This document shows positions 1,057-28,069 of a DNA stretch of 64,000 bases, one piece after another; within the stretch, counting starts at the first letter, position 1, and every line of letters starts with the position of its first letter. The stretch lies in IMG/VR virus record IMGVR_UViG_3300034105_001678, positions 5,543 through 69,542 of that record. One strand, 5' to 3'. The notes beneath the pieces were generated by a model. The model saw nothing but the letters and a program-made list of their open reading frames with translations. It searched no databases and was not told the DNA's origin. The translations under genes were made by a program, and so were the position numbers. Origin of the DNA: a virus. Its lineage: Duplodnaviria > Heunggongvirae > Uroviricota > Caudoviricetes.

Positions 1057-1081
1057 TAATACATAGGTTGATAAGGTGAAA

Positions 1082-1112: not shown

Positions 1113-1245
1113 TTACCAAGAACCAGATCCACCTATATCCGGATTCGGAATATTGTTTGGCTTTGAGGTATTACATTATAGGGGCCAAAGATTATTTACC
1201 GGAGGACCTGATCTAACCAGGATGGAAAAATAATTTGAAAATAAA
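1113..1245. repeat. IRE copy 2
   Basis: AACCAGATCC...AATATTGTTTGGCTTTG...GGCCAAAGATTATT...CCAGGATGGAAAAAATAATTT. Confidence 0.7.
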
Positions 1246-1313
1246 ATTAAATAATTTTGTTTGGAATTAAAATAGTTGTATATTTGTGTATTCTAAAACT
1301 AAAAAAAAATATT

Positions 1314-1643
1314 ATGATTAACCAACAAGATTACAAAGGTCGTGAAATTGAATTTCAAATGGACGACGTTGATGACAATGTTTACTTCGAGGGTTGTGAT
1401 GACCACACCTTGACGGATGAATTTATGACTAACCTAATGGAAAAGGTTATGAGTTGTAAATGGTTTATTATGGGAAACAAGACCGAAGGTATCATTACCT
1501 TTCAATCCCACAATGAATTTACGATTGACTGGAAATCAATTACAATGGGTGAAGACTGGGACACCGATGAAGAAGATGACCACACACAAGAAGTCCTATT
1601 GAATTATGACTCCGAACAAACCCAAGTAGTTAATTTCAATTAG
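1314..1643 (+). CDS. hypothetical early protein (acidic)
   Basis: ATG at 1314 is in frame with track ORF 1257..1643. Promoter at 1256-1286, terminator at 1663-1690. Confidence 0.5.
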   Translation: MINQQDYKGREIEFQMDDVDDNVYFEGCDDHTLTDEFMTNLMEKVMSCKWFIMGNKTEGIITFQSHNEFTIDWKSITMGEDWDTDEEDDHTQEVLLNYDSEQTQVVNFN

Positions 1644-1690
1644 AAGTTACAAACGGAATTAGACCCCTTACAAAAGTGAGGGGTTTTTTT

Positions 1691-1790
1691 ATGTCCAAGA
1701 AGATCTGGTTCACCTGAGTCTGTGTAATTTTGTTTGGCTAAGCCAATCATTATCCATAGCTCCGGCCCGGAGATCATCGTCCCACAGAAA
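1691..1790. repeat. IRE copy 3
   Basis: TTTTTTTATGTCCAAGAAGATCTGG...TTTTGTTTGGCTAAGCCAATCATTATCC... Confidence 0.65.
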
Positions 1791-1816
1791 TTAATTTAAA
1801 AAAGATTATAAAATGT

Positions 1817-1848
1817 TTTGTTTTATATTAAAAATTGTATTACCTTTG
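1817..1848 (+). promoter_or_regulatory. Early promoter (TTTG 1817, TACCTTTG 1841-1848)
   Basis: 20 nt spacer; fits the consensus. Confidence 0.55.
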
Positions 1849-1871
1849 TGGAACAAATAACAACAAGTACT

Positions 1872-2729
1872 ATGAGTAATCAAGATTCAAGAGTAGTAGA
1901 AATACTCAACAAAGCAAAATTAAACTGGAACGTGAAATCCGAAAGGGTTACCACGGAGTCTGGTATTACATTAGATGGGTATTCAGCCCTGGTTCGTGAA
2001 GACACGAACACTCCACTATCTGTTAGAAGTGAGTCGTATTATCCTTATCAAAACTACGAGTTAGTAGAGTTGTTAGACCGAGTATCGGGATTAACTGGTT
2101 TGTCCATTCACAAAGGAGGTTTCTTTGGTGAGGGCCAAAAAGTATTCATCCAGTTGAAGTCCAACAATTTACGAATTGGTAACGACAGAGTTGAAGGATA
2201 CCTTACGGGAATCAACAGCTTCGATGGTACAACATCTTTGGCCTTTGGTCCAAGTAACATCACCATCAGTTGCCAAAACAAATTCTTTGCAGCCTTTCGT
2301 GAAATGCAATCCAAGGTAAGACATACCAAGAATATGGTAGTAAAGATTGATGAGATCTGTAAAAGACTAGAAGGAGTACTGGACGAGGAGAAGATTGTAT
2401 TCGATAATATCCTTAAGCTGAGTGAAACAAGGTTCGACGATATCATTAAGGATAGAGTTACGCGTGAACTATTCGGCATTAATAAGGATATAGACCTTAA
2501 AGATATGGAGGCAATCAGTGGTGTAACACGCAATAAGCTGAGCCGTTTCTATGTAGATTTAAATGGTGAGTTGCAAGGCAAGGGTGATAACCTATGGGGT
2601 TTATTCTCTGGTATTACAAAGTACACTACTCATAGCCTTACAAAGAATGATAACACTGAAGCCAAAATGTTTGGTGTGTATGGTAAGAGAGAGTTAAGCA
2701 TATTCAACAAGCTGACAGAGCTTGTATAA
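1872..2729 (+). CDS. hypothetical protein (286 aa)
   Basis: In-frame ATG at 1872 (MSNQDSR...). The long ORF has coherent coding potential. Confidence 0.5.
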   Translation: MSNQDSRVVEILNKAKLNWNVKSERVTTESGITLDGYSALVREDTNTPLSVRSESYYPYQNYELVELLDRVSGLTGLSIHKGGFFGEGQKVFIQLKSNNLRIGNDRVEGYLTGINSFDGTTSLAFGPSNITISCQNKFFAAFREMQSKVRHTKNMVVKIDEICKRLEGVLDEEKIVFDNILKLSETRFDDIIKDRVTRELFGINKDIDLKDMEAISGVTRNKLSRFYVDLNGELQGKGDNLWGLFSGITKYTTHSLTKNDNTEAKMFGVYGKRELSIFNKLTELV

Positions 2730-2936
2730 CAATATTCGGTTGGGAGAGGAATATTAAAACACTCTGTGGTCATAGAGTGCGAAGGTTAAGAATAAGTATA
2801 CGAGTGGTATCCCAAGACAACGCCCACGTTGCGTTTCCTATCGTATTACATAGTAGGTGGTTCCTTGAAAAGCATAACGCCTATTCTTATCAAAGACTGA
2901 CATAGTGGAAAGACATTAGGGATTATAAAATAATAA

Positions 2937-2971
2937 AGACCTTTCGGAGTAGTCAACCGAGAGGTTTTTTT
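2937..2971 (+). terminator. rho-independent terminator
   Basis: Hairpin gacctttcgg...ccgagaggt then T7. The small ORF 2846..3079(-) in this region is probably a shadow ORF. Confidence 0.55.
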
Positions 2972-3122
2972 ATGCCCAAGAAATAGCAACTGTGCTGCAC
3001 TGGTGGAATATTGTTTGGCTGAGCCAATCATTATCAAGAGCTGCGCTGTTGCGCTGAGGAGAGCGCTTATACGGGCCAATCAATATTGTCCGGTGCCCAC
3101 TGATCTCCAGGACGTAAAAAAT
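2972..3122. repeat. IRE copy 4
   Basis: TTTTTTTATGCCCAAGAAATAG...AATATTGTTTGGCTGAGCCAATCATTATC...GGGCCAATCAATATTG...CCAGGACGTAAAAAATAATTT. Confidence 0.7.
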
Positions 3123-3146
3123 AATTTAAAAAAAAATAAAATAATA

Positions 3147-3178
3147 TTTGGTGGAATGAAATAGTTGTTATATCTTTG
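3147..3178 (+). promoter_or_regulatory. Early promoter (TTTG 3147-3150, TATCTTTG 3171-3178)
   Basis: Exact 20 nt spacer. Confidence 0.7.
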
Positions 3179-3199
3179 TGGAAACAAAAAAGAAAAATT

Positions 3200-3532
3200 A
3201 TGGACTACAAAATTGTAACATCAAGTAATTCACACACATTAACCGAAAACATAAGGTTATTAATAGGTGAAGGGTGGGAACCAGTTGGTTCACATCAAGT
3301 CGTAACTATACACGACCAAAATAGATATCGTGGTAATCAACATATTGACACCACACACGAAACCGAGTATTCACAAACTATGGTTAGAAAAACCAATACG
3401 AAAGTTATTGAAGTGGATATTATGTTCAACCATCCTGACGATGATGAAACCATTAAGGTTTATGATGAAGAAGGAATGAGAGAAGAATTTGAATATGAAT
3501 TAGATTGTTTAATTAAAAACTCTGGATTATGA
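3200..3532 (+). CDS. hypothetical protein
   Basis: ATG at 3200 (MDYKIV...). The track start 3176 is a TTG. Confidence 0.5.
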   Translation: MDYKIVTSSNSHTLTENIRLLIGEGWEPVGSHQVVTIHDQNRYRGNQHIDTTHETEYSQTMVRKTNTKVIEVDIMFNHPDDDETIKVYDEEGMREEFEYELDCLIKNSGL

Positions 3533-3801
3533 ACAGAATATCAATTTACAAAATAACGGATTTGGATGATGTAGATTCAGATGCGATGTATTATACTCTT
3601 AAAGGTTTAAGAGAACAAGTGTTAAATGAGTGGTATGATGTATGGGGTGAAAGGTGGAATGAAAAATGGGAGGGAGAACAAGACTACACCAAAGAACAAA
3701 TCAAAGAGAGTGATGAAGACCTATTTGGTTATATGGATAGTTGGAATTATAATGTGGAAACAATATTAGAAATCACGGAAGATGACTTCCCTAAATCTTA
3801 A
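3529..3801 (+). CDS. hypothetical protein (acidic, Trp-rich)
   Basis: ATGA overlap with the upstream gene. Confidence 0.45.
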   Translation: MNRISIYKITDLDDVDSDAMYYTLKGLREQVLNEWYDVWGERWNEKWEGEQDYTKEQIKESDEDLFGYMDSWNYNVETILEITEDDFPKS

Positions 3802-3804
3802 ACT

Positions 3805-4026
3805 ATGATAAAGTCAATCGAAGAAAAGAAACACACACCAGTTGAAATAGATTTAACTGGTCCTGATGGAAATGTATTTTACCTTATCGCTCAAGGTGGT
3901 AGGTATTGTAAACAACTGGGTTTAAACTCGGAAGTGTTCACTCGTAGAATGATGAGTGGTGATTACGAAAATGCGGTCAACGTATTTGAAGAATATTTTG
4001 GATCATTTGTAACTTTATTTAGATAA
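3805..4026 (+). CDS. hypothetical protein
   Basis: ORF closely follows the upstream stop. Confidence 0.45.
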   Translation: MIKSIEEKKHTPVEIDLTGPDGNVFYLIAQGGRYCKQLGLNSEVFTRRMMSGDYENAVNVFEEYFGSFVTLFR

Positions 4027-4028
4027 TA

Positions 4029-4060
4029 TTTGGTGGAATGATATATTAGTTATATCTTTG
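4029..4060 (+). promoter_or_regulatory. Early promoter (TTTG 4029, TATCTTTG 4053-4060)
   Basis: 20 nt spacer. Confidence 0.7.
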
Positions 4061-4081
4061 TACCGAACAAAAAAATTAATT

Positions 4082-4279
4082 ATGACAAAGTATCAAGTAT
4101 TAAGTCCAGACGGGTTTACGATTGAGTTCGATAAACCTTATTACACCTCAAAGAAAAAAGCTTTCGAAGCTTTTGACAAGTGGAAAGAAAGGTATAAATT
4201 ACAAGGGTATTATAGTTCCAACAATGGAAGAATACCTTTGGAGGAATTAGAAGATTATATGAGTATTCGTCAAATTTAA
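4082..4279 (+). CDS. hypothetical protein
   Basis: ATG at 4082 (MTKYQV...). Confidence 0.45.
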   Translation: MTKYQVLSPDGFTIEFDKPYYTSKKKAFEAFDKWKERYKLQGYYSSNNGRIPLEELEDYMSIRQI

Positions 4280-4390
4280 AATCAATAACAATGAATATAT
4301 TATATTATATACTTTTAGTATTCGGAGTTGTAGTAGTATTAGCCGCGATGGTTGTAATACTCGTAATCATAATTAAAAAAGCGATAGACA

Positions 4391-4663
4391 ATGGAACAGA
4401 CCCCAACGACATTTAACTTTCATTTAGATACAAAGGTTACAACCTGGTATCGTACAGAATTTGAAATCGAGGCTAACTCATTAGAGGAAGCTCAGAAATT
4501 GGCAATTGCCTTTCGTGAGAGAGGTGATAACACGGAACTGCCGTGGGAACAAATTGACGACACTCTTGAAGGTATGATACCAGATGAAAATGGTGCAGAA
4601 CCTACGGAGGAATTATATGATGAGGATGGTAATATAATTTGGGATAACACTAAATCAATTTAA
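4391..4663 (+). CDS. hypothetical acidic protein
   Basis: ORF. Confidence 0.45.
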   Translation: MEQTPTTFNFHLDTKVTTWYRTEFEIEANSLEEAQKLAIAFRERGDNTELPWEQIDDTLEGMIPDENGAEPTEELYDEDGNIIWDNTKSI

Positions 4664-4664
4664 A

Positions 4665-4982
4665 ATGGATAAGTTAGAATTAATCAAACGTATTACAGAC
4701 ATACTAAAAGTTAATGGATGTTTTAGTATTGGAGAATTGGAGGGAGAAACCACAGGAATTTGTGTGGGTGAATTAGGTAAGTTCGTTGGACTGGTTGAGT
4801 ACTTCACCGAAGATTATTGTGAAGTGAATGTATATGAACCAAGTTCATTTAGTTCAGACCCAATAGACACCTACGAACAAGACTATGGTTTTTTAAGTGA
4901 AGATGTATTAGGTGATATACATTTATTATGTGAACAATGGGAAGCTGAATGTATTAGAACAGAAAAAAGAATTTCAAATTAA
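4665..4982 (+). CDS. hypothetical protein
   Basis: ORF starts 2 nt after the upstream stop. Confidence 0.45.
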   Translation: MDKLELIKRITDILKVNGCFSIGELEGETTGICVGELGKFVGLVEYFTEDYCEVNVYEPSSFSSDPIDTYEQDYGFLSEDVLGDIHLLCEQWEAECIRTEKRISN

Positions 4983-5084
4983 GTTTACATTATAAAAGAC
5001 ATAATGTATATTATATAAAATTGTGTTTATAATTTGTGTTTGAATGTGTAAGAGGGAATGGTAGAAATATCATTTCCTTTTTTT

Positions 5085-5232
5085 ATGCCCAAGAAGATCT
5101 GAGCACAGTGGCACAGGAGAAATAATGTTTGGCTTTCACCTTCCGACGCTGTGGGCCCTGGACTGAATTTGTTTGGCCGAGCCAAACATTATCGGACAGG
5201 TGGATCACCGGCCACCGGTTCTTCCCAGGAAA
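5085..5232. repeat. IRE copy 5
   Basis: TTTTTTTATGCCCAAGAAGATCTGAGCACAG...AATAATGTTTGGCTTTC...TTTGTTTGGCCGAGCCAAACATTATCGG...CCCAGGAAAAAATAATTT. Confidence 0.7.
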
Positions 5233-5259
5233 AAATAATTTAAAAAAAATAAAATAATA

Positions 5260-5291
5260 TTTGTTGGAATAAAATATTTGTTATATCTTTG
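5260..5291 (+). promoter_or_regulatory. Early promoter
   Basis: TTTG 5260-5263, TATCTTTG 5284-5291, 20 nt spacer. Confidence 0.65.
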
Positions 5292-5312
5292 TGTAAACAA
5301 AAAAAGAAAATT

Positions 5313-5561
5313 ATGTCAAATCTAAAAGATCAAGAAGTTAACTCTCATTGGACAAAGGTCGCTAAGAGAGTATTAGAGGGAAAAACTATTGTAGAAGTTC
5401 GTTATCTTAATGATGAGGAAATGGAAATGATGGGTTGGTATAAACGACCTGTATGTTTTGTCCTAAATGATGGTACAAGTTGTATGTTATCCTGTGATGA
5501 TGAGGGTAATGATGGTGGAGTTTTATTCTATGGAACTGATGGTGTTTTACCAGTATTATAA
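5313..5561 (+). CDS. hypothetical protein
   Basis: ATG at 5313 (MSNLKD...). Confidence 0.45.
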   Translation: MSNLKDQEVNSHWTKVAKRVLEGKTIVEVRYLNDEEMEMMGWYKRPVCFVLNDGTSCMLSCDDEGNDGGVLFYGTDGVLPVL

Positions 5562-5597
5562 TAACATATAAAAAAGTTTTAAAAAAATTAAAATAAA

Positions 5598-5629
5598 TTT
5601 GGTGGAATGAAAACTTCTTTATATCTTTG
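5598..5629 (+). promoter_or_regulatory. Early promoter
   Basis: TTTG 5598-5601, TATCTTTG 5622-5629, 20 nt spacer. Confidence 0.65.
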
Positions 5630-5661
5630 TGTAACAATTTAAAATATATAATCCAAAAAAA

Positions 5662-5687
5662 CGGGGACAGGTTTCTGAACAAAAATT
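5662..5687 (+). promoter_or_regulatory. Conserved 5'UTR element CGGGGACAGGTTTCTGAACAAAAATT
   Basis: A near-identical 26-mer also sits at 9461-9486, in the same position between the -7 box and the ATG. Confidence 0.5.
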
Positions 5688-5691
5688 GAGT

Positions 5692-6438
5692 ATGGGAAAC
5701 GTACAATTATTAGGTAAAAAAGTAAACGAGGTTTACTCTACCAAAGATTACAACAAGTTTAAATTTCGTGGGGACAATCGTATTGTCAAAGACTCTCACG
5801 TAAGAGGTCTAATTGAGAATATGAAGTTACGAGGTTGGGAGCCAGGTTCATACGTGGTTATCAACGAGAAAGGTGAAGTCATTGACGGACAACATAGAGT
5901 AAGGGCGGCTATCCAAGTGGGTATTCCAGTTCATTACACTATTGAGAAAAAAGCGGGGTTTGAAACTATCCGTAACCTTAATAGAAACCAAAAGAACTGG
6001 GCGATAACCGACCACATTCACGGATTCGTTGAGGAAAACAATCCACACTACATTAAGTTAAACAACTTCATTAAGGAGTACAAAGAACTTAAAGTTACTG
6101 AATGTATGATGTTATGTAAAAATTCATTCTCATCAGTTCCTCGTAACGAGTTTGAGAGTGGTAACTTTACTACACGTGATATGGGTAAGGCGAGAATGTG
6201 GGGTGATTACATTATGTCACTTAAACCATTCTTTAAAGGTTACAATCGTTCAATCTTTGTAAGAGCGATAGTGAAAGTGTTATCAAAGAAACCAGAATTC
6301 AAGTTTGATAAATTCTTACATAAGGTTCAATTAAGACCAAACTTAATTACTATGTGTGGGACAGTTGAACAATATATATCAATGATTGAGGAGTTGTATA
6401 ACTTCGGTAGTCGTGATAAAATCAATTTAAGATTTTAA
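5692..6438 (+). CDS. ParB-like N-terminal domain protein
   Basis: Segment ...VVINEKGEVIDGQHRVRAAIQVGIPV... resembles the ParB/Srx fold motif (idGhHRl.Aa). ATG at 5692. Confidence 0.45.
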   Translation: MGNVQLLGKKVNEVYSTKDYNKFKFRGDNRIVKDSHVRGLIENMKLRGWEPGSYVVINEKGEVIDGQHRVRAAIQVGIPVHYTIEKKAGFETIRNLNRNQKNWAITDHIHGFVEENNPHYIKLNNFIKEYKELKVTECMMLCKNSFSSVPRNEFESGNFTTRDMGKARMWGDYIMSLKPFFKGYNRSIFVRAIVKVLSKKPEFKFDKFLHKVQLRPNLITMCGTVEQYISMIEELYNFGSRDKINLRF

Positions 6439-6466
6439 GAGTTGGGTTATATAGGTTGGTTAGTAA

Positions 6467-6496
6467 AGTGGGGTGGACTTCGGTTCACCCTTTTTA
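6467..6496 (+). terminator. rho-independent terminator
   Basis: gtggggtggacttcggttcaccc then T5. Confidence 0.55.
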
Positions 6497-6579
6497 TTTG
6501 TATTACCTGGAAGAATGATCTGGGTCGGGGGACCTGTTAGATAGTGTTTGGCCCTGAATGTGAATAAGTTAAAAAAAGT

Positions 6580-6610
6580 TTTGCAGTTATTAACATTTTG
6601 TGTATATTTG
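6580..6610 (+). promoter_or_regulatory. Promoter (TTTG 6580, TATATTTG 6603-6610, 19 nt spacer)
   Basis: Fits the Bacteroidetes consensus. Confidence 0.5.
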
Positions 6611-6635
6611 CAGAACGAAAACAAACAAATGTATT

Positions 6636-6878
6636 ATGATTAAAAAATTGTCGAAAGATCAGACATTAAGAATGTTTGACCATTCCACGAAATTGTATTG
6701 TAAAATACAATTGAGTGAAAACAAGAAGTATTACGAGAAGTACGTTTCCAGGGATAAAAAGAACTGGGAATTAATTAGTAAGTTAAAATCGTTTGATGAG
6801 GTATTAACAACTCAGCAAGAATTGATAGATAACAACTATATGAACTTGTTTAGAAAGATTAGCACGGGTAAAGTTTAA
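6636..6878 (+). CDS. hypothetical protein
   Basis: ATG at 6636 (MIKKLSKD...). Confidence 0.4.
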   Translation: MIKKLSKDQTLRMFDHSTKLYCKIQLSENKKYYEKYVSRDKKNWELISKLKSFDEVLTTQQELIDNNYMNLFRKISTGKV

Positions 6879-6908
6879 TAGATTTTGGATTAGTAAGTTT
6901 TATTGTTC

Positions 6909-6940
6909 AGGAGACCTCACCAGAAATGGTGGGGTTTTTC
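6909..6940 (+). terminator. rho-independent terminator
   Basis: cctcacca-gaaa-tggtgggg then T5. Confidence 0.6.
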
Positions 6941-6942
6941 TT

Positions 6943-7150
6943 TGCAACTAATTTGCGCAGATCTGGCAGCAGAGGTGGATAATGTTTGGCCATCGTAACT
7001 ACTTGATTATCAATGATAGTCCTGGGCCAATCATTATCGGTGCTGTTGCGCGCAGCAGGTGTTCCCATTTATGCGCAGCAATTTGGCTGAATTATGCGCA
7101 ACTGGTGGCCAATCATTATTAGGGATGATCTCACCAGCATCCAGGGCACA
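6943..7150. repeat. IRE copy 7 (the longest, composite)
   Basis: Contains GCGCAGATCTGGCAG, GATAATGTTTGGCCATCG, GGGCCAATCATTATCGG, TGGCCAATCATTATTAGGGATGATCT and CCAGGGCACAAAAAAAAC. TGCGCAG-type sub-repeats occur several times. Confidence 0.65.
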
Positions 7151-7179
7151 AAAAAAACTTCATTTATTTTTAAATTAAA

Positions 7180-7211
7180 TTTGGTGGAATGAAAATAGTT
7201 TTATATCTTTG
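7180..7211 (+). promoter_or_regulatory. Early promoter
   Basis: TTTG 7180-7183, TATCTTTG 7204-7211. Confidence 0.65.
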
Positions 7212-7233
7212 TACAGAACAAAAAAAACAAATT

Positions 7234-7992
7234 ATGATTTACAAAAACATCTCACAATCTAAGAAGTCTACTGGACTATCTTATTTAGGTATGGTTAACA
7301 ACTCTACCAAACACGAAAAAGCGTACAAGTTCGATGAACTGGTATACACTTTATATTTGGCACCTGCCAAAATGAGTGGGTACGAAGTTTGCCCGATGAG
7401 AACAAAAGAATGTACATTGTTATGTCTGAATGAATCAGGTCGTAATAAAATGGACACTCACAAAAACACGATTAACAATTCACGAATCAAAAAAACTAAA
7501 TTGTTTTTTGAGGAGAGAGAATTCTTTATGAAGTGGTTAATCGATGATATCACAATAGCCAAAAAGAAGGCTAAAGATCTGGGATATCATTTTAGTGTTC
7601 GTCTGAATAATACTTCGGATATCTCCCCCGAATCTTTTTACTTGTCAATTGATGGAGTCAATAAAAACATACTGGAAATATTTCCCGATGTTCAATTCTA
7701 TGATTATACAAAAGTACCTAATCGGATGAGGTTGAAAATGAAATACCCTAATTACGATTTAACCTTTTCATTTAGTGGTAACAATATGGATGAGTGTTTT
7801 AAAATGTTACAAAATAACATTAGGGTGGCGATGGTGTTCGACAAAGTTCCCACGTCATACAAAGGTTATAACGTTATCGATGGTGATCAGTACGATATGA
7901 GATATCGGGATGATGATAATGTTATTGTTGGTTTGAAGTTTAAACGAGTACGAACTAAACTAGATAAAAAATATAAGTTCGTAATACAATAG
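7234..7992 (+). CDS. hypothetical protein (252 aa)
   Basis: ATG at 7234. Terminator at 7999-8020. Confidence 0.5.
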   Translation: MIYKNISQSKKSTGLSYLGMVNNSTKHEKAYKFDELVYTLYLAPAKMSGYEVCPMRTKECTLLCLNESGRNKMDTHKNTINNSRIKKTKLFFEEREFFMKWLIDDITIAKKKAKDLGYHFSVRLNNTSDISPESFYLSIDGVNKNILEIFPDVQFYDYTKVPNRMRLKMKYPNYDLTFSFSGNNMDECFKMLQNNIRVAMVFDKVPTSYKGYNVIDGDQYDMRYRDDDNVIVGLKFKRVRTKLDKKYKFVIQ

Positions 7993-7998
7993 AATAAG

Positions 7999-8020
7999 AA
8001 ACCCCGAAAGGGGTTTTTTT
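7999..8020 (+). terminator. rho-independent terminator
   Basis: aaccccgaaaggggtt then T7. Confidence 0.7.
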
Positions 8021-8165
8021 ATGCCCAAGAATCTCCGGCCACTGTGCACAGATGAAATTTGTTTGGCCGAGCCAATCATTATTAGAAGACGCCGTCGCCG
8101 GTCTTCTGTGAAGGTAAGAGCCAATCATTATTAGGGATGATCTGCACCGGTGGCCGGAAATAAAA
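8021..8165. repeat. IRE copy 8
   Basis: TTTTTTTATGCCCAAGAATCTCCGG...AAATTTGTTTGGCCGAGCCAATCATTATTAG...GAGCCAATCATTATTAGGGATGATCT... Confidence 0.7.
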
Positions 8166-8190
8166 TAATTTTAAAATAAATAAAATATTA

Positions 8191-8222
8191 TTTGGTGGAT
8201 TGAAATAAAGGTTATATCTTTG
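8191..8222 (+). promoter_or_regulatory. Early promoter
   Basis: TTTG 8191-8194, TATCTTTG 8215-8222. Confidence 0.65.
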
Positions 8223-8245
8223 TACCGAACAAAAAAACATATACA

Positions 8246-8533
8246 ATGATTAAAGAAAAAAGAAAACCAATTTCAGTAAGTGACCACAAGAGATTCGCTT
8301 GCTTTGAGTATGAAAATGAAACTTCACCAGGCTATCAACTGGGCGATATTCTTTACAAGGAATATGGTGAAGAACAGGAACCAGAAGTCGGAGTAGTCAT
8401 CCAAACTTTCGAGGATGGTGATGTTAGAACCGATATGTGGGGTATGAGTTGTGATGACGAAGTATCTCAAGCAACTTTGGAACAGATCAAAAAGTATCGA
8501 CCAAGTTTAATGGAATTTCTTTTAATAAAATAA
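8246..8533 (+). CDS. hypothetical protein
   Basis: ATG start as in the track. Confidence 0.45.
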   Translation: MIKEKRKPISVSDHKRFACFEYENETSPGYQLGDILYKEYGEEQEPEVGVVIQTFEDGDVRTDMWGMSCDDEVSQATLEQIKKYRPSLMEFLLIK

Positions 8534-8534
8534 A

Positions 8535-8566
8535 TTTGGTGGAACAGAATAAAAGTTATATCTTTG
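8535..8566 (+). promoter_or_regulatory. Early promoter
   Basis: TTTG 8535-8538, TATCTTTG 8559-8566. Confidence 0.65.
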
Positions 8567-8604
8567 TAAAATAAATCATTTACTAATTAATAAATTTAAA
8601 CAAA

Positions 8605-9045
8605 ATGGGAACACGTTCAACCTACCGAGTTATCGAACAATGGACTGATGACAAAACCGGTAAAATCAAAAATGAGAATTTAGTTTTAGTGTATCTGCAA
8701 TATGACGGATACCCAACAGGTCATCCTATTGATACCGCTGAATGGTTATCAACTGGCAAAGTCGTAAATGGTTACAGCCTAAACGAAGAATTACAATTCA
8801 ACGGAGCTGGCTGTTTAGCTGCCCAACTCGTAGACAAAATGAAAACTGGAACTGGTGGATGTTATATACATTCATTGAGTAGTCGTGGTAAATCGTGGGA
8901 AGATTATCTCTATGATATTATTGTCAAAGAAGATAAATCCATTGAGTACGTTTGTTATGAGAATGGAAGTAAGAAGAAAGAACTATTTCGTGGTTCACCT
9001 GCGGACTTTGTAATCAAATATCATAAAGAAGATGTCGAAGCTTAA
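8605..9045 (+). CDS. hypothetical protein
   Basis: ORF. Confidence 0.45.
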   Translation: MGTRSTYRVIEQWTDDKTGKIKNENLVLVYLQYDGYPTGHPIDTAEWLSTGKVVNGYSLNEELQFNGAGCLAAQLVDKMKTGTGGCYIHSLSSRGKSWEDYLYDIIVKEDKSIEYVCYENGSKKKELFRGSPADFVIKYHKEDVEA

Positions 9046-9406
9046 TAAAGTTAGATTTAACCTTTCACGTGGTGAAAACTATATGAAGTGGAAAGTAATG
9101 TATGACGACGGCAGGGTGGATTATCACCATCCTGCTGAAGTTCAGATCAATATGTTTGGCTGTACCCTATCTAATAATAGAAGAGCGGCCGACAAGATCT
9201 TTAATGGTGAAACTACCAAAGTGGTGTGTGCTTATATTAAGTGTAAGGATGTCCAGGTTATAACCAGTGACTTCAATACTGAAAGTAATACACAGATCAA
9301 GTACAACCCAAGAGAGATGCCATTCTGGAATGTGGATGGTGTTAATCACGACGGAAATTATTATGAAGAACTTTTTACAATAGATTATAAAGTTTTTGTA
9401 AAATAA
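9032..9406 (+). CDS. hypothetical protein
   Basis: Overlaps the upstream gene by 14 nt. Confidence 0.45.
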   Translation: MSKLNKVRFNLSRGENYMKWKVMYDDGRVDYHHPAEVQINMFGCTLSNNRRAADKIFNGETTKVVCAYIKCKDVQVITSDFNTESNTQIKYNPREMPFWNVDGVNHDGNYYEELFTIDYKVFVK

Positions 9407-9438
9407 TTTGGTGGATTAAAATAATTGTTATACATTTG
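9407..9438 (+). promoter_or_regulatory. Early promoter (TTTG 9407, TACATTTG 9431-9438)
   Basis: 20 nt spacer. Confidence 0.6.
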
Positions 9439-9489
9439 TAAAAGAAATCAATTTAAAACACGGGGACAGGTTACTGAACACAAATTATT

Positions 9490-10035
9490 ATGGGACTAGA
9501 TATGTATTTGTCGAAAAAAACTTATGTTAAACAATGGTCACACATTGAACCAGAGAAACAATTTGAAGTAGAAGTTAAACGTGGTGGTGAACCTTACACC
9601 GACATCAAATCCGAACGAGTGTCATACGTGACCGAAGGTGTTGGGTATTGGAGAAAGTTCAACGCTTTACACAACTGGTTTGTGGAGAATTGTCAGGATG
9701 GTTTGGATGAGTGTCAAGAAAGTTATGTAGACCGAACCAAGTTAGAGGAGTTAGTTGTAACACTTCACGAGGTCAAGAACATTTTAGAGAACTCACCAAA
9801 GAAAAAGGTACAGGTTAAAAATGGTTGGTCAAATGGTGAGGACACCTTTGTTGAAATCGAAGTATCGGAAGATAGTGAGAAGTTAGATGAGTTGTTTCCA
9901 ACATCATCAGGGTTTTTCTTCGGGGGAACTGAATATGATGAGTATTACAAAGAACAAGTTGATGAAACAATCGAATTGATTACTGACTTGTTGAAAGATG
10001 AAACGGGTGAATACTACTACCAAGCTTCTTGGTAA
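9490..10035 (+). CDS. hypothetical protein
   Basis: Preceded by the CGGGGACAGGTTACTGAACA UTR element. Confidence 0.45.
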   Translation: MGLDMYLSKKTYVKQWSHIEPEKQFEVEVKRGGEPYTDIKSERVSYVTEGVGYWRKFNALHNWFVENCQDGLDECQESYVDRTKLEELVVTLHEVKNILENSPKKKVQVKNGWSNGEDTFVEIEVSEDSEKLDELFPTSSGFFFGGTEYDEYYKEQVDETIELITDLLKDETGEYYYQASW

Positions 10036-10055
10036 ATAATATAACGGGAATATCA

Positions 10056-10087
10056 TTTGGAAAAATGGTATTCCTTTTATATCTTTG
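10056..10087 (+). promoter_or_regulatory. Early promoter
   Basis: TTTG 10056-10059, TATCTTTG 10080-10087. Confidence 0.6.
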
Positions 10088-10108
10088 TAAAACTTAAACT
10101 AAACGATT

Positions 10109-10753
10109 ATGCCAAACTGGTGTTCAAATTCTATTGTCATTACTGGTGACAAAGAAAAAATAAAAAAGATTAAAAGGGTGTTACAATCAATGGACACCAA
10201 ACAAGATAACATTGGTATATTTCAAACTCTTGTTGGTAAGGACGATAATATAAGTGAGTCCCAGTACAATGAGGGAGGAGCTTGGTATCAACATAACCTT
10301 GATAGGTATGGATGTAAATGGGATATCAACTGGGATGACTCCAACATTGATATTGAGGGTGATGAATGTATTACTATGTCACCACAAACGGCTTGGTCGC
10401 CGCCGGAGGGATTCTGTAGATTACTATCCGAACAATATGGTGTAGATGTTCTACTGGAATACTCGGAGCCTGGATGTGACTTCGCCGGTAAACTTCTCAC
10501 ATATGGTGATGGTAGAGAGGAGGAGGGAGAAACATATCAATACCTCGAAGGATTATACTTCATTGATGAGGATTACTTTTGGATGGAGGTTAGAAACAAT
10601 CTCGAGTATGAGTTTGAAGATGGAGAACCGAGAGAAGTAAAGGAATGGATGGAAGACTTCCAGTATGTAGATGAGAAACATCATAGTGACCTTATTGAGT
10701 TATATGATGATATCAAAGAGGAGTACGAAGAACAACAACAAGAATCAAAATAA
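10109..10753 (+). CDS. hypothetical acidic protein
   Basis: Long ORF. Internal ORFs 10254.., 10288..(-) and 10446.. are shadows. Confidence 0.5.
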   Translation: MPNWCSNSIVITGDKEKIKKIKRVLQSMDTKQDNIGIFQTLVGKDDNISESQYNEGGAWYQHNLDRYGCKWDINWDDSNIDIEGDECITMSPQTAWSPPEGFCRLLSEQYGVDVLLEYSEPGCDFAGKLLTYGDGREEEGETYQYLEGLYFIDEDYFWMEVRNNLEYEFEDGEPREVKEWMEDFQYVDEKHHSDLIELYDDIKEEYEEQQQESK

Positions 10754-10822
10754 TTTCACGGGAGCTGAGATGGTAAATAATCTTTGGCTCCCATTTATAC
10801 ACACTAAATAAAAAAACAAGCA

Positions 10823-11314
10823 ATGGGAAGATTTAATCAATCAATCGACGGAGTATTCACTGATCTAGTAGAAGTGGGACAAATTCCAAGTTATGACAAG
10901 TTCGTAAACTATGGTAATGAAATTAAACCAAGTAAAGACCTGAAGAAATTCACCGTCGAGTACAAGAACCTAGTAAAGGTGTTTGGCCCTACAGTGGAGA
11001 AGTTGGCAACACTTGAGGAAATCATTATGCAAATGAGAGCAAAAGAATCAGTGGATGATATTAAGTTGTCCTTAGTAAGAGATTACTTATATGCTCGTTG
11101 TTCATTCTTCCGTCGTGGCAAGTTGTCTAAGGACATTCGTGTTATCGTGGACAAGGCTGAATTCTGGGAAGTACCTAATGTGGATGATCTTTTAACCAAT
11201 AAGGACTTTATGGACAAAGCCGTTAGCAAACTTACAAGAGCAATGGACACTGAGATTAAGAACAATGTCTATGAGTATGGTAAAACTCAAGAGTTAGAAA
11301 ATACTAAAAAATAA
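10823..11314 (+). CDS. hypothetical protein
   Basis: ORF. Confidence 0.45.
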   Translation: MGRFNQSIDGVFTDLVEVGQIPSYDKFVNYGNEIKPSKDLKKFTVEYKNLVKVFGPTVEKLATLEEIIMQMRAKESVDDIKLSLVRDYLYARCSFFRRGKLSKDIRVIVDKAEFWEVPNVDDLLTNKDFMDKAVSKLTRAMDTEIKNNVYEYGKTQELENTKK

Positions 11315-11369
11315 TTAGTATATTCCAAATTAGTTTGTATCTTTACATCGAACAATAAAATAAACTGAT

Positions 11370-11939
11370 ATGAGTAAAATTAAATTAGGTAAGGAGGTTA
11401 TGATATCCGACCCTTGTTATGTGGAACCTACTTGGTGTCAACATAAGCTTAAGAATGTATTACCTGGAGAGTACTCCGTGTATAACAAGTACTTCAACGC
11501 TGGTGATTGGGGCATAAGGAATTCTATGTTGATTGCGGTCCATCAGGATTACGAGATGGATGACAATCTAAGATGGAAAGAATGTGCTGGAGCTGTAGTG
11601 GGTGTTGACTCGGGACAGGCTGGAATATTTGACCACGCGTATTACAGGAAGGACAGTGTCTTCGAGAATCAGGAATCCAAATTCCTTAAGGAGTATGTGG
11701 TCCACAACAATGAGGGAGGAGAGATATGGTATGCACATATGTGTGACCGTACCTTAGGTGAAGAAGGATGGGGACACTTCGAACACGGAGTGGTATCTAG
11801 ATCTGGATTCGGGGATGGTTCATATACTCTGTATGTTGCAAGAGTTAACCGCAAGGTGGTTGGTATCTGTATCGACTTCGAAGTTGAACCTGATGGTTCC
11901 ACAATTGAATTTGATTTCTATAAGAACCAGGCTGTTTAG
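11370..11939 (+). CDS. hypothetical protein (in the GC-richer region)
   Basis: ORF with a noticeably higher GC codon preference than its neighbours. Confidence 0.45.
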   Translation: MSKIKLGKEVMISDPCYVEPTWCQHKLKNVLPGEYSVYNKYFNAGDWGIRNSMLIAVHQDYEMDDNLRWKECAGAVVGVDSGQAGIFDHAYYRKDSVFENQESKFLKEYVVHNNEGGEIWYAHMCDRTLGEEGWGHFEHGVVSRSGFGDGSYTLYVARVNRKVVGICIDFEVEPDGSTIEFDFYKNQAV

Positions 11940-12140
11940 TCCTGGTTCTTCTTACTAACATCTAATCCAAAACAAATGAAAAAGTTCTTATTTAACTTGC
12001 ACTGGCTGTTTGACTTCTATGTCATTTACTTCACCTATAATACTAGTAAGATTAAAAGGTACCACGAGTATATGTCCAAGAAGTATGGAAACAAATACAC
12101 AGATTTATTCACGGGACCTGAGGAGGATTCCAAATAATGT

Positions 12141-12569
12141 TTGGCTATGAATGAACCAGAAATAACTTTAAAACCTTCACAGTGGCTGAATGCCGGTTGG
12201 ATATTGTTTGGCCTTGCGGGCATAATGTTTGTCATCCCTCCACTTATAGCAATATGGAAGATAATAGAACTATATTGCCACAAGTATGATTTCTATGAGG
12301 ATCACATTCTAGAGTCGAAGGGTGTCTTCACCGTCACCAGGAATGAGATTCATTATTTCAGAATCAAGTCCATCCAAATCGACGAACCATTCCTCTACAG
12401 GTTGGTGGACCTGTCTAGTTTGCACATTAAGACATCTGACCAGTATACGATGGAGTTCACCTTGAAGGCTATACCAGTAGGTAAAACTCTGGTGAACGAT
12501 TTAAGGACTGTGGTTAAGGCAGAAAGAAAGGCACATAATGTGAGGGAGTTTGATATGTACGACCTATAA
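12141..12569 (+). CDS. membrane protein with a bacterial PH (bPH_2/YdbT-like) domain
   Basis: N-terminal TM hairpin followed by a region resembling the membrane-flanked bPH_2 domain. The start may instead be ATG at 12147. Confidence 0.4.
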   Translation: MAMNEPEITLKPSQWLNAGWILFGLAGIMFVIPPLIAIWKIIELYCHKYDFYEDHILESKGVFTVTRNEIHYFRIKSIQIDEPFLYRLVDLSSLHIKTSDQYTMEFTLKAIPVGKTLVNDLRTVVKAERKAHNVREFDMYDL

Positions 12570-12638
12570 AATATATTTTAATGGAATTTGGAATTACAGA
12601 TAATTTTGTTTATAATTTATATATAAACAAATCAGATT

Positions 12639-12821
12639 ATGAAAAAAACAAACACTGGTCGTGCAACACAGGTAACTACCTACGTGCCGATCTCAGACAA
12701 CATTTACCACGATGGGTATTCTTACCGTGTACGAGTAAGAGTTCAGGGCGAGACTGTAAGCAGAAACTTCTCAAGCAAGAGAAAGGCTGTAGCTTTCCGC
12801 AACGAATTGCTAAGAGGGTAA
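12639..12821 (+). CDS. small basic putative DNA-binding protein (AP2/integrase Arm-like)
   Basis: YRVRVRVQGETVSRNFSSKRKAVAFRNEL resembles the AP2 / Arm DNA-binding fold. A terminator follows at 12846-12888. Preferred over the overlapping ORF 12581..12898. Confidence 0.3.
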   Translation: MKKTNTGRATQVTTYVPISDNIYHDGYSYRVRVRVQGETVSRNFSSKRKAVAFRNELLRG

Positions 12822-12845
12822 TTAAAGACTTCCTTAAAAGAGGGC

Positions 12846-12888
12846 AAGGCCTGGGTGTGAAAGCGCTTGGGCCTTTTTTTTATGTCCC
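12846..12888 (+). terminator. rho-independent terminator
   Basis: GC-rich stem then T8. Followed by the TATGTCCC...CCCAGGATGGAAAATAATGTTTGGC module (IRE-like, 12889-12935). Confidence 0.55.
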
Positions 12889-12958
12889 GTCAGTGTAAGA
12901 CGACCCAGGATGGAAAATAATGTTTGGCTTTAAAATATTCTAAATATTTATAGGATAT

Positions 12959-13669
12959 ATGGAGAAACTAATATACCTTGTCGAGGAAAACGTTTTATTA
13001 ATGAAGAGACTCGAGAACCTAACCGTGTATGACGGGAACAGGTTCCACCTAACCATCACCTGGGAACAGGATGGTCCTAATATGCACGGTGTAATACTCG
13101 GGACCATAAAGGTGGACTCACCTCAGATATCAGTGGATCTAATCGACGGTCTGATGAAGACAGCAGCCCAGTACTTGTATGACAACAATATTGACCCGAC
13201 CGATAACATTACCTTCAGTGTCTCCAGGATATATATAATGTTTGGCCATAACAAGATTGATCTATTCGACTACATCCCACACAACCTGAAGAGGGACCTC
13301 ATCGGTGACACCCCAACTATAAAAGAAGTAGTAGATGGACACTATGGTAATATCAACCCAGATCAACTACCAGACTTCAACAGTGAATATGACAAACACG
13401 TAGCTGTTAAAATAAAAAGATTACAAGCCGTCTTTAAAGTATTACAAAGGGGTACCTTTGAAGGTGAACCCTATAGACTTAAAAGTCACCCTGAGATAGT
13501 TGTTAACTCGGACGACAAGAACTTCACCGTAGGTGGTAGGGTTGTTAGTCCAGACTTTAAACTATCCATTACAGGTGAAATTGAATCTGGACCACAGACT
13601 GTGGAGTTCAGAAACTTCCTTAGAGAGAAATTCAAAAACCTTGGTATAACCGATTCTAACTTTATTTAG
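12959..13669 (+). CDS. hypothetical protein
   Basis: ORF. Contains an internal ATAATGTTTGGCC motif at 13245. Confidence 0.45.
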   Translation: MEKLIYLVEENVLLMKRLENLTVYDGNRFHLTITWEQDGPNMHGVILGTIKVDSPQISVDLIDGLMKTAAQYLYDNNIDPTDNITFSVSRIYIMFGHNKIDLFDYIPHNLKRDLIGDTPTIKEVVDGHYGNINPDQLPDFNSEYDKHVAVKIKRLQAVFKVLQRGTFEGEPYRLKSHPEIVVNSDDKNFTVGGRVVSPDFKLSITGEIESGPQTVEFRNFLREKFKNLGITDSNFI

Positions 13670-13679
13670 TTGGGTTAGG

Positions 13680-13760
13680 GTTTGGGGCCAAACATTATTC
13701 GTATTACAATGGTTGTTTAGACACCTATCATTTTAGTCAATAATGTTTGGCCCTTATCTA
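13680..13760. repeat. Perfect palindrome GGGCCAAACATTATT...AATAATGTTTGGCCC flanking about 45 nt
   Basis: Arms at 13686-13700 and 13738-13752. Confidence 0.7.
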
Positions 13761-14030
13761 TTGCGGTCCTCCCTCCGGTCGGACCTTCATCCCGTATTCT
13801 TGCCAAACAAGTTCACCCTGTATGACATCCCGTAAGTTGTTTGGCAAAAGTGATGTATGACTTGGCGGGGGATCTGTCGATCCCCCTTCAGGTAGATACT
13901 AGAACCTGGTCTATAGGGATATAATTATAAACCCATTATACTGGTGTATGACAAGGGGGATGTATGACATCGGGATGAAGGGAGGGAGACGAGAGTCTCC
14001 CGACCGTATAACCATTATACTATTATATGA
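13760..14030. other. Candidate replication origin / strand-switch control region
   Basis: Four TGTATGAC(A/T) iterons at 13819, 13854, 13945 and 13961. IR TTGCCAAACAA / TTGTTTGGCAA at 13796-13848. Hairpin GGGGGATCTGTCGATCCCCC at 13869-13888. Long-range IR at 13771-13794 versus 13971-14006. Non-coding over about 650 bp, between the plus and minus gene blocks. Confidence 0.45.
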
Positions 14031-14349
14031 ACGGGTATAATCTGTATATATGTATGTATAAAAGTATACCCTTTATAGAAAAATATAAAAAACAGATCAC
14101 GATTGACGCAGGGGTCAATCCCCATAGAGTTGCAACCAAAGTGGGAGAAGGTGGTAAATTGTGGGTGATATATACTAGAACCCAAAAACCGGACACAAAG
14201 TCACTTATTTATGTATATAAAAAGATCCCGACAAAATGTCACTAAAAAAACCCCTGTTTACGGGTATAAAAACGGGAATAAATTAGGGGTCATTTACATC
14301 CCGTTATAATCGGTCGGAGAACGATGTTCTCCTCCCTCAAAGATAGTAA

Positions 14350-14640
14350 TTACTTCTTCTGTTTAAACAACTTTGTCCATATCTGACTACGGGGATTACC
14401 TAACTTCATCCCTATATACTTTCCAATAACTGAACCCAATATATAGAATACTACTATGGTAAAGTTTCCCTTTAGTAAATCATCTATGGCATAATAGGTA
14501 GACACAAGAGCCACCAAATTTAACCATACTGAATTTAAGAGTAGAGCCCCTATCTTATTCTGGTAGGTATACTTTATCTCTAACACCTTAAAGATGTTAA
14601 ATAAAGTTTGTGATGTTAATACTATAAGTTCTTTATACAT
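14350..14640 (-). CDS. small polytopic membrane protein (possibly GtrA-like)
   Basis: 96 aa with about 3 TM helices, immediately downstream of the GT2 gene. Similarity to GtrA is not demonstrable by eye. Confidence 0.35.
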   Translation of the reverse strand: MYKELIVLTSQTLFNIFKVLEIKYTYQNKIGALLLNSVWLNLVALVSTYYAIDDLLKGNFTIVVFYILGSVIGKYIGMKLGNPRSQIWTKLFKQKK

Positions 14641-27688: not shown

Positions 27689-28069
27689 CTAAATAATTTT
27701 AGAATTTACTTTTTCTACTATGTTTTTGTAATCTTCCATATAACCATCTTCGAATTTAGAACGGTCATTAAAGGTCTTAATTGAATGAAGTACAGTGGTA
27801 TGGTCTCTACCATTTAAAAACCCGCCAATCTCAACTAAACTGTATTTAAACTCACTTCTCATCAGGTTACAGAACATATGACGAGCGTCAGATACTTCAC
27901 GCTTATTGTATTTGCGTATAATGTCCTCAACTGAAATAGAGTGGTACTCTCCCACTATCTTTAAAATTTCGGTATGGGAGATTTTAGTTCTTCTAGACTT
28001 TGTAAAATTTTTGGGGATATCTTCTTTTTTGATACCAGGGAAAACGTAAGGGCTAATCCTTCCTTTCAT
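27689..28069 (-). CDS. DnaA domain IV (C-terminal DNA-binding domain)-only protein
   Basis: [40 protein letters not shown] aligns with the DnaA C-terminus ([40 protein letters not shown]). Confidence 0.7.
   Translation of the reverse strand: [126 protein letters not shown]

Follow-up and report, generated by a model that had tools for sequence, protein, structure and literature searches.

Bacteriophage T5 carries untranslated repeat regions that are better conserved than the neighbouring open reading frames (ORFs) and combine nested direct and inverted repeats, palindromes and DnaA boxes in a fixed order; one of them lies at a strand switch, and the DnaA boxes, eight in number, are arranged in pairs separated by 3 bp (10.1101/866236). 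A short nick site, TACT/ATGAC, has been validated in phage tf (PMC3517423). Cis-acting sites such as origins and termini are essentially unmapped in uncultured jumbo phages. Here we describe a 680-bp gap between opposed gene blocks in a 64,000-nucleotide stretch of a tailed phage genome (Caudoviricetes; IMG/VR record IMGVR_UViG_3300034105_001678, positions 5,543 to 69,542; hereafter the window), for which a preliminary description had proposed a replication origin. The gap, between the end of the last plus-strand gene (13669) and the first minus-strand gene (14350..14640), is a conserved, single-copy, non-coding DNA locus of uncultured freshwater phages of approximately 300-335 kb with Bacteroidota-type promoters, and it lies at a convergent junction, where it closes an early-type gene block at its 3' end. 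It very probably acts in cis, at the DNA level, as a protein-binding locus. The preliminary description was largely right that a functional non-coding cis-element is present, and an origin is a possible, unproven candidate; most of the reasons given for it (divergence, iterons, palindromes and an AT-rich tract) fail.

More than 60 related loci (numbered here with an L prefix) were retrieved by flanking proteins and DNA patterns from IMG/VR contigs of up to 335 kb and from freshwater metagenomes. Each contig has the hairpin module described below at a single place, and this holds for long contigs of 316 kb (IMGVR_UViG_3300032313_000682), 334 kb (3300046820_001270) and 335 kb (3300042391_000634); the order of parts is common to more than 40 distinct contigs. 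From left to right, a-box arms with or near the heptamer GTAT[T/G]AC are followed by two to three units of GTAT[T/G]AC, a GC hairpin and CCTTCAGG/CCTTCATCC; then come a CACGTG-centred palindrome (in many lineages) and two further GTAT[T/G]AC copies; and last an inverted hairpin module, a core of approximately 300 bp and a direct hairpin module. Inverted and direct modules of type B bracket the core in all lineages. The best conserved part in distant relatives corresponds to 14100-14290, with approximately 71% DNA identity. The genes flanking the locus are replaced between lineages while the core persists, and L006, L008 and L009 split into different cassettes exactly at the outer edge of the right module.

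In the window the core (14007-14345) is approximately 340 bp long and makes up the right half of the gap, which the preliminary description had not flagged. It and its two brackets, the inverted copies M3 and M4, consist of the following features.

13971..14006, minus strand: M3, an inverted type B module (CGGGATGAAGGGAGG-GAGAC-GAGA-GTCTC-CCGACCG), the left bracket of the core.
14007..14096, unstranded: AT-rich tract, 79% AT, shorter in other lineages.
14095..14123, unstranded: GATC boxes and a conserved word, with the box GATCACGA, its second copy GATCCCGA at 14224-14231, and the word GGGGTCAATCCCC.
14141..14164, unstranded: GTGG triple, GTGG-N6-GTGG-N6-GTGG (GTGGGAGAAGGTGGTAAATTGTGG), in 10-bp phase, the invariant signature of the locus.
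14224..14310, unstranded: right part of the core, with GATCCCGA, an A-run and the G-rich repeats ACGGGTATAAAAACGGGAATAAATTAGGGGTCA.
14305-14271 and 14265-14244, minus strand: two terminator-like hairpins, each with a T-run, their shape not conserved in L006-type relatives.
14311..14345, plus strand: M4, a direct type B module (CGGTCGG-AGAAC-GAT-GTTCT-CCTCCCTC), the right bracket of the core.

The conserved blocks of the core are GATC[A/C]CGA, GGGTCAATCCCC, TAAAAAC[A/G]GG...GGGGTAA and, above all, the GTGG triple, which each of 52 loci contains exactly once and which is found at no other place in the 1.37 Mb of sequence fetched. In the most distant relatives (L054, L055, L056, L059 and L062) the triple is inverted relative to unchanged neighbours that include GGGTCAATCCCC, as fits a protein site on double-stranded DNA and not an RNA. 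Alignment folding of the core with RNAalifold gave no consensus structure (-5 kcal/mol, 12 pairs, no covariation), and no reading frame is conserved in the core among relatives. With no conserved fold, no frame and a box cluster that can be flipped, the core very probably functions as duplex DNA on which a protein assembles. Most other lineages have a perfect DnaA box (TGTGGATAA) as their third GTGG unit; it reads TGTGGGTGA in the window and TGTGGGTGA or TGTGGGTGG across the window clade. As candidate origin iterons, the three GTGG units form an array that is locus-specific and invariant, unlike the TGTATGAC copies that the preliminary description had singled out. G-rich "iteron" patterns of 8-9 bases defined by eye were only modestly enriched and post hoc, and were replaced by the phased triple.

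The window has a G+C content of approximately 33%. Plus-strand genes span 1-13669 and minus-strand genes occupy 14350-51353, and since the stop codon of 14350..14640 sits at 14350, the gap is a tail-to-tail (convergent) junction. The preliminary description thus correctly recognised a non-coding region at the strand switch (approximately 650 bp in its account), but the blocks converge there, and the transcription divergence that it reported occurs instead at 51354-51590. It had looked to cumulative GC skew to place an origin at the minimum; the gap lies at the maximum (13-14 kb) and the minimum is near 52 kb. Under the usual convention this would make the gap terminus-like, but sense-strand skew is nearly equal in the three gene blocks (0.186, 0.200 and 0.171), so skew only mirrors gene direction, neither supports nor refutes an origin, and has no power as a test here. 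No part of the 64 kb is richer in GC than the left half of the gap, whose AT content falls below the 0.1 percentile. The AT-rich tract of the preliminary description is present but unexceptional, since 14007-14096 stands at the 97th percentile for AT and approximately 3% of all windows are equally AT-rich.

The only ORF proposed in the gap (14027..14245) had been called doubtful, and with good reason: its frame is broken in the close relative L003 and in L006. A coding role for the gap was rejected because stop-free frames are inconsistent among relatives. Searches of the gap against Rfam (gathering and E-value thresholds) and for tRNA and tmRNA genes gave no match, and neither did a DNA similarity search against 50,697 phage records. 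A scan for sigma-70 promoters and terminators returned sites no commoner than in shuffled sequence; the promoters of this phage follow TTTG-N-TAnnTTTG and not the sigma-70 type. No conserved promoter lies within the gap. A TTTG-type promoter at 14345 (minus strand) pointing into the gap was set aside because it is not conserved; its host-type -7 box TATCTTTG (14345-14338) overlaps M4.

The left half of the gap (13670-14006) consists of words that occur throughout the early block, interleaved with GC hairpins selected for structure.

13685..13753, unstranded: a-box inverted repeat GGGCCAAACATTATT / AATAATGTTTGGCCC, with perfect 15-bp arms and a DNA fold of -15.5 kcal/mol (z = -5.5).
13765..13794, plus strand: M1, a type C module, GGTCC-loop-GGACC followed by CTTCATCCCG, complementary to the flanks of M3.
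13800..13847, unstranded: second a-box inverted repeat TTGCCAAACAA / TTGTTTGGCAA, with GTATGAC (13820) in its 26-nt loop (fold z = -4.4).
13855..13892, plus strand: GTATGAC (13855-13861) and M2, a type A module, GGGGGATC-TGTC-GATCCCCC followed by TTCAGG.
13899..13916, unstranded: palindrome remnant, which in the window is without the central ACG.
13946..13968, plus strand: GTATGAC pair, copies at 13946 and 13962, 16 nt apart and directly before M3.

Each hairpin module is a GC-rich hairpin followed by CCTTCAGG or CCTTCATCC. Among type A modules (GGGGnnn, a 3-4-nt loop, nnnCCCC and TTCAGG) 11 different stems were found, every one of them with perfect Watson-Crick pairing. When 15 distinct type A copies are aligned in true register, all 120 cells are paired and G-U pairs number zero; three of the eight pairs change on both sides (20 cells), and the observed covariation was reached by no shuffle. 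Stems of types B and C likewise vary with complementarity kept, and at the place matching M1 relatives have GGGCC/GGCCC, GGGAC/GTCCC or GGGTC/GACCC, which are compensatory changes. In the modules, only stem complementarity and the flanks are thus under selection. The counterpart of M3 stands 130-180 nt left of the GTGG triple in all lineages, and the outer edge of M4 is a breakpoint past which gene content differs among relatives. In 26 of 37 modules the loop is T-N-C on the CCTTCAGG (transcribed sense) strand, so that the complement reads G-N-A. Loops of this G-N-A kind, when closed by C-G, have unusual stability in DNA, a property that we infer to be a sign of DNA hairpins. The lack of G-U pairs, the presence of both orientations in one locus and the T-N-C/G-N-A loops together indicate DNA hairpins, or at least not an RNA of the sense strand. 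A UUCG tetraloop (and hence RNA) reading of the modules was rejected, as the loops in register are the 3-nt T-N-C / G-N-A. An origin from host repetitive extragenic palindromic (REP) elements was also rejected, for a search of 185,579 bacterial genomes with the module returned only 2 chance matches. On the plus strand, as in all hairpin modules, no U-tract follows the stem; the two hairpins with T-runs on the minus strand of the core (14305-14271 and 14265-14244) are not conserved.

The repeats that the preliminary description listed in this half are all in place, with coordinates correct to within 1 nt, and none can be put down to chance; what changes is their meaning. The four direct-repeat "iterons" (TGTATGAC at 13819, 13854, 13945 and 13961) are irregularly spaced (35, 91 and 16 nt) and belong to the heptamer GTAT[T/G]AC; in the gap GTATGAC is seen four times, where an order-2 Markov model predicts 0.13. 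The inverted repeat around the first of them (13800-13810 / 13837-13847) is present, as is the hairpin GGGGGATCTGTCGATCCCCC at 13867-13886. So is the long-range inverted repeat CCTTCATCCCG (13784-13794) / CGGGATGAAGG (13971-13981), a pairing that also takes in CTCCCTCC / GGAGGGAG and CGGTCGG / CCGACCG. The perfect 15-bp repeat has its arms at 13685-13699 and 13739-13753, each 1 nt from where it had been placed; its 39-nt loop holds GTATTAC (13701), and it is the first structure past the last plus-strand gene. Individual hairpins of the gap fold with z = -3.4 to -5.5, and 13760-14015 as a whole has a predicted fold of z = -5.0 on the plus strand and -4.4 on the minus strand.

Two words account for most of these repeats. 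The a-box word TGTTTGGC/GCCAAACA is usually arranged as a palindrome, AATATTGTTTGGC-N3-GCCAAWCATTAT, with a canonical terminator before it and, after it, a very regular promoter of host type, TTTGGTGGAATG...TTATATCTTTG, that fits TTTG / TAnnTTTG, the pattern of Bacteroidota; the plus strand of 1-13669 has TGTTTGGC 15 times against 0.16 expected. Both inverted repeats of the preliminary description consist of this word and are therefore not origin-specific. The heptamer GTAT[T/G]AC was counted in 1-14350 versus 14351-64000 of the window, and also in L014, L015 and L064-L079. The upstream 13.7 kb of the window has 19 sense copies (approximately 3 expected) and 7 antisense copies (approximately 1.4 expected), the gap has 5, and in the other 49.6 kb neither strand has a copy where 12.9 would be expected. 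Across nine lineages, 264 copies (204 sense, 60 antisense) lie in 133 kb of early blocks and none, on both strands, in the 119 kb beyond the locus. An unbiased scan of the window for 6- to 8-mers ranked GTATTAC (22:0), the a-box word and GTATGAC (9:0) as the most block-specific. The heptamer has a density of approximately 1.5 per kb across the early block, mostly on the sense strand, and is confined to the block also in relatives with different early-block genes. No peptide motif accounts for it, since the sites occupy all three codon phases. The four "iterons" are thus the terminal and densest cluster of a block-wide word and not iterons specific to an origin, although a GTAT[T/G]AC copy immediately ahead of the inverted module is kept in nearly all lineages. 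A literature search for GTATTAC returned primer noise only. The heptamer could be a nick, cleavage, silencing or pausing signal. It may, though this is doubtful, be a genome-partitioning tag, a mark by which an enzyme or DNA-binding protein of the phage would nick, cut, silence or hold whatever DNA is expressed first, in a T5-like two-step programme or by tf-like strand-specific nicking, with the locus as the boundary where that activity stops.

The gaps upstream of early genes (330-13260, plus strand) are modular, with a terminator, ATGCCCAAGAA, GATCTGG, AATATTGTTTGGC-N3-GCCAAWCATTAT, an A-rich tract and the promoter TTTGGTGGAATG-N-TTATATCTTTG, and their promoters are near-identical from gene to gene. 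The a-box palindrome resembles parS half-sites and may be an operator of the ParB-like protein encoded at 5686-6438, in the manner of KorB. Where the window has its palindrome remnant (13899..13916), relatives read AGAACCACGTGGTTTG (L001), GGTTCCACGTGGAACC (L006, a perfect palindrome) or GGTTTCACGTGGAACA (L011). One such palindrome, the parS-like GGTTTCACGTGGAACA or the perfect GGTTCCACGTGGAACC, stands directly after a hairpin module in L011 (approximately 11000-11030), L007 (approximately 9850-9877) and L006 (approximately 11195-11215). The canonical parS consensus is TGTTNCACGTGAAACA. Compared as a 16-bp palindrome accompanied by a ParB gene, GGTTTCACGTGGAACA agrees with canonical parS (TGTTTCACGTGAAACA) at 14 of 16 positions in L011 and L007, and the palindrome is broken in the window.

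Our leading reading, tentative and to us clearly less likely than not, is that the core is an origin-type nucleoprotein site at which replication would initiate. An initiator or DnaA-family protein would nucleate at the strongest box, then oligomerise along the phased weaker boxes adjoining the AT-rich tract; the outward-facing hairpins of M3 and M4 would be strand-specific priming signals and/or barriers to converging transcription. An origin stays under consideration because the locus is single-copy and conserved amid gene change, has phased GTGG boxes beside an AT-rich tract, is bracketed by modules and contains DnaA boxes in other lineages. In those lineages perfect DnaA boxes number 46 in 49.9 kb of locus sequence (0.92 per kb) versus 13 in 400 kb outside it (0.032 per kb). 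That the phage encodes a stand-alone protein with the DnaA box-binding domain was also counted in favour.

Several observations weigh against an origin. The DnaA-box enrichment counts related sequences and so represents few independent events, although the boxes of the locus fall at three or more different positions. No DnaA box (TTATNCACA) within one mismatch is found in 13670-14350 of the window or in the window clade, and a DnaA-box cluster in the window was accordingly discarded as a candidate. In none of the lineages examined is the locus adjoined by a recognisable gene for an initiator, helicase or primase. At a convergent site, forks leaving the locus would meet transcription head-on on both sides. 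The locus sits at the maximum of cumulative GC skew, uninformative as skew is here, and the AT-rich tract beside the boxes is ordinary for the window. Short boxes in phase, with inverted repeats as brackets, would be equally at home in a centromere, a pac site or an anchoring site.

Five of the eight contigs of at least 8 kb with the early block (L028, L039, L043, L044 and L051; metagenome contigs of 9-14 kb) end no more than 350 nt right of the core. Contig ends near the locus number 11 versus 7.2 expected (P = 0.05), a marginal enrichment, and a physical genome end at the locus was not accepted on that account. Such stops could reflect strain-variable cassettes that break assembly, or a physical DNA end.

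Rather unlikely, in our estimate, is a boundary or anchor of first-entering DNA like the injection stop signal (iss) of T5, in which the upstream block would be pre-early, possibly within a long terminal repeat, and the locus a nucleoprotein knot that halts entry or marks the repeat boundary. The early block does consist of small genes that each have a strong host-type promoter and a terminator to themselves, and it encodes protein families (DUF932, ParB-like, DUF1281_C and GP88) characteristic of the leading regions of plasmids and of early phage genes. The description of the T5 repeat regions uses matching terms, DnaA boxes included, and Repeat Region 2 likewise lies between rightward genes and genes of the opposite strand (10.1101/866236). 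DnaA boxes are present in most lineages here, contigs stop right of the core as given above, and homologues of a 198-aa early protein are encoded 0.5-8 kb from the record ends of several cultured large phages, a weak point as record starts may be arbitrary. The eight DnaA boxes in pairs 3 bp apart are nevertheless absent, with none in the window clade and one or two single boxes elsewhere; many viral contigs continue straight across the locus; the marginal enrichment of contig ends is explicable by the variable cassette beside M4; the block begins at a divergent junction and not at a contig end in L070 and L079; and the iss mechanism of T5 is itself only a hypothesis. We hold at a similarly low level a pure transcription boundary with an operator cluster, whose hairpins would stop or stabilise converging transcripts and whose boxes would bind early regulators, for example the ParB-like protein acting like KorB, with the cluster as nucleation site or sink. 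It accords with the convergent position, the two minus-strand hairpins with T-runs (14244-14305), the a-box palindromes AATATTGTTTGGC-N3-GCCAAWCATTAT upstream of most early promoters, composite TGTTTGGC-N4-GTCATAC sites upstream of promoters in relatives, the ParB-like protein itself (5686-6438; PHROG 3.5e-32), the parS-like palindrome of relatives, and the rank of the two words as the most block-specific 7- and 8-mers. The modules, however, are without U-tracts while canonical terminators are used elsewhere in the block, they occur in both orientations with no G-U pairs in their stems, and the terminator-like hairpins are not kept in L006-type relatives; a 340-bp core with invariant phased boxes, in single copy and bracketed by modules, is left unexplained.

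Still less probable is a pac or partition (centromere) site, with an oligomeric small terminase or a centromere-binding protein on the phased GTGG and GATC boxes. In its favour are the one locus per genome, short boxes that keep phase and can be inverted, GATC[A/C]CGA boxes to the left and right of the triple in the window clade, a ParB-like gene with parS-like palindromes, and contig ends near the core. Sites of the pac type are usually in or beside the small-terminase gene, and neither a terminase gene nor a structural gene lies in the 64-kb window; the window has the parS-like palindrome in broken form, and the ParB call comes from PHROGs only, Pfam finding no ParB domain. The strong fold of 13760-14015 (z = -5.0), the compensatory changes in the hairpin stems and the sense bias of the heptamer in the early block (204:60), together with its place in hairpin loops in the window, raise the question of structured non-coding RNAs or a 3' untranslated region of the early block, for example a protein sponge that displays GUAU[U/G]AC between stable hairpins. 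We consider this very unlikely, as there is no Rfam match and no conserved promoter in the gap, the core has no conserved structure and is partly inverted in distant lineages, the modules occur in both orientations with no G-U pair among 120 stem cells, T-N-C loops fall on the transcribed sense strand and G-N-A loops on the complement in 26 of 37 modules, and exclusion of the heptamer from both strands elsewhere is not required of a signal at the RNA level. Hardly credible is a decayed or domesticated mobile element, whether a miniature inverted-repeat transposable element (MITE) or an IS200/IS605-related insertion with M3 and M4 as terminal inverted repeats, or a cluster like REP elements and bacterial interspersed mosaic elements (BIMEs). 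It would explain a core between inverted copies of a module of approximately 35 bp and the divergence of gene content exactly at the outer edge of M4; a TnpB gene (OrfB_IS605 / Cas12f-like TNB) abuts M4 in L005, L006, L014 and L016 and lies 1.8 kb off in L003, and many modules are preceded by TTAC, the target of IS608. Yet there is one copy per genome at a constant relative position in all lineages with no empty site seen, the module is absent from bacterial genomes, no Y1 transposase (TnpA) was found, TnpB alone is encoded by a few relatives, while the window and most others lack it, and L008 and L011 share the sequence adjacent to M4 without TnpB.

The genes beside the gap encode proteins of unknown function, a glycosyltransferase and a metallophosphoesterase. 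Pfam gave no match for neighbour genes in distant lineages, the neighbours in L055 and in L006 are uninformative, and the flanking 236-aa protein has no match in cultured phages. The DnaA domain IV protein proposed at 27689..28069 (minus strand) is indeed a stand-alone DnaA C-terminal domain of 126 aa (Pfam Bac_DnaA_C, 5e-18), encoded 13.4 kb from the locus. It is 78-80% identical across the window clade, the clade whose locus lacks a consensus DnaA box; in a search for its gene beyond that clade only close relatives were retrievable. The ParB-like assignment at 5686-6438 was borne out by PHROGs and not by Pfam, as noted above. DUF932, DUF1281_C (Api92-like) and PcfJ-like domains, typical of conjugative-plasmid leading regions, are encoded at 1818-2729, 10109-10753 and 46771-48663, and the 198-aa protein with homologues near the record ends of several cultured large phages at 460-1056; the annotated ends of those cultured phages have no repeat features recorded. 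A sugar-modification block (52519-61743, plus strand) includes two glycosyltransferases, a nucleotide-sugar epimerase, a UDP-galactopyranose mutase homologue and a galactosyl transferase.

The TnpB/Cas12f-like gene beside the right module encodes 455 aa (Pfam Cas12f1-like_TNB 2e-14, OrfB_IS605 2.5e-6) in L006 (9349-10716; IMGVR_UViG_3300042474_001151); it is also found in L005, L014 and L016, and in L003 at 9287-10579. Ahead of it in L006, 9009-9300 holds 2.6 copies of a 66-nt period made of a palindromic repeat of approximately 38 nt and unique spacers of approximately 27 nt, which looks like a miniature CRISPR-like array. The core was also considered as a TnpB omega-RNA; this was rejected because the window and most relatives are without TnpB and relatives lacking it share the junction sequence.

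The locus and the block-restricted heptamer are new and testable. The GTGG-N6-GTGG-N6-GTGG signature flanked by hairpin and CCTTCAGG modules, kept across more than 60 contigs, is an easy single-copy marker, and the locus is a concrete target for coverage-based mapping of origins and termini and for binding assays. That 119 kb beyond the locus are free of the heptamer suggests an activity, specific to this sequence, by which early DNA is told from the rest, and so restricted a word could bear on the timing of gene expression or DNA entry in large phages. "Iterons" and "palindromes" in a gap should be compared with the whole genome before they are called origin elements.

Among known systems, Escherichia coli oriC and P1 oriR are like the locus in that a strong 9-mer (TTATCCACA, perfect in most lineages) stands at the end of a few weaker boxes that share one orientation and helical phase, with an adjacent AT-rich tract and GATC-containing boxes in a single copy. 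The locus differs from them in its period of 10 bp instead of 11, its three boxes only and its convergent setting, and in that the window clade is without a consensus DnaA box and no initiator gene lies beside the locus. In oriV of RSF1010, ssiA and ssiB present one hairpin signal twice, on opposite strands, beside an initiator-binding AT-rich segment, and in the ssi hairpins, as in the modules, only stem complementarity and flanks are conserved. There is no sequence similarity to RSF1010, no RepB'-type primase was identified, and the left half has extra module copies; a priming role of the hairpins by this likeness would be pure inference.

Like the T5 repeat regions, the locus is large and untranslated, stands after or within genes of pre-early type, is more conserved than the flanking ORFs and has nested repeats in fixed order; it differs in having no sequence similarity, no eight paired boxes, Bacteroidota-type hosts and a genome approximately three times larger. 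The heptamer may be likened to the nick sites of T5, phiKMV and tf, which are short words confined to or biased toward one strand, and GTATGAC shares TATGAC with the tf site. It is, however, confined to the block and excluded from both strands elsewhere, is approximately ten times denser and has 60 of 264 copies on the other strand. REP elements and BIMEs are, like the modules, oriented hairpins found in both orientations and at convergent gene ends, but the modules are confined to one locus and no REP-associated tyrosine transposase (RAYT) was found. The a-box recalls the palindrome that serves KorB as operator in RK2, which likewise recurs ahead of many promoters within one gene block; the difference from KorB/ParB operators is that the ParB-like assignment is weak. 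While it has the defining features of none of them, the locus resembles origins with DnaA boxes or iterons, the ssi pair of RSF1010 and the repeat regions of T5 in its layout.

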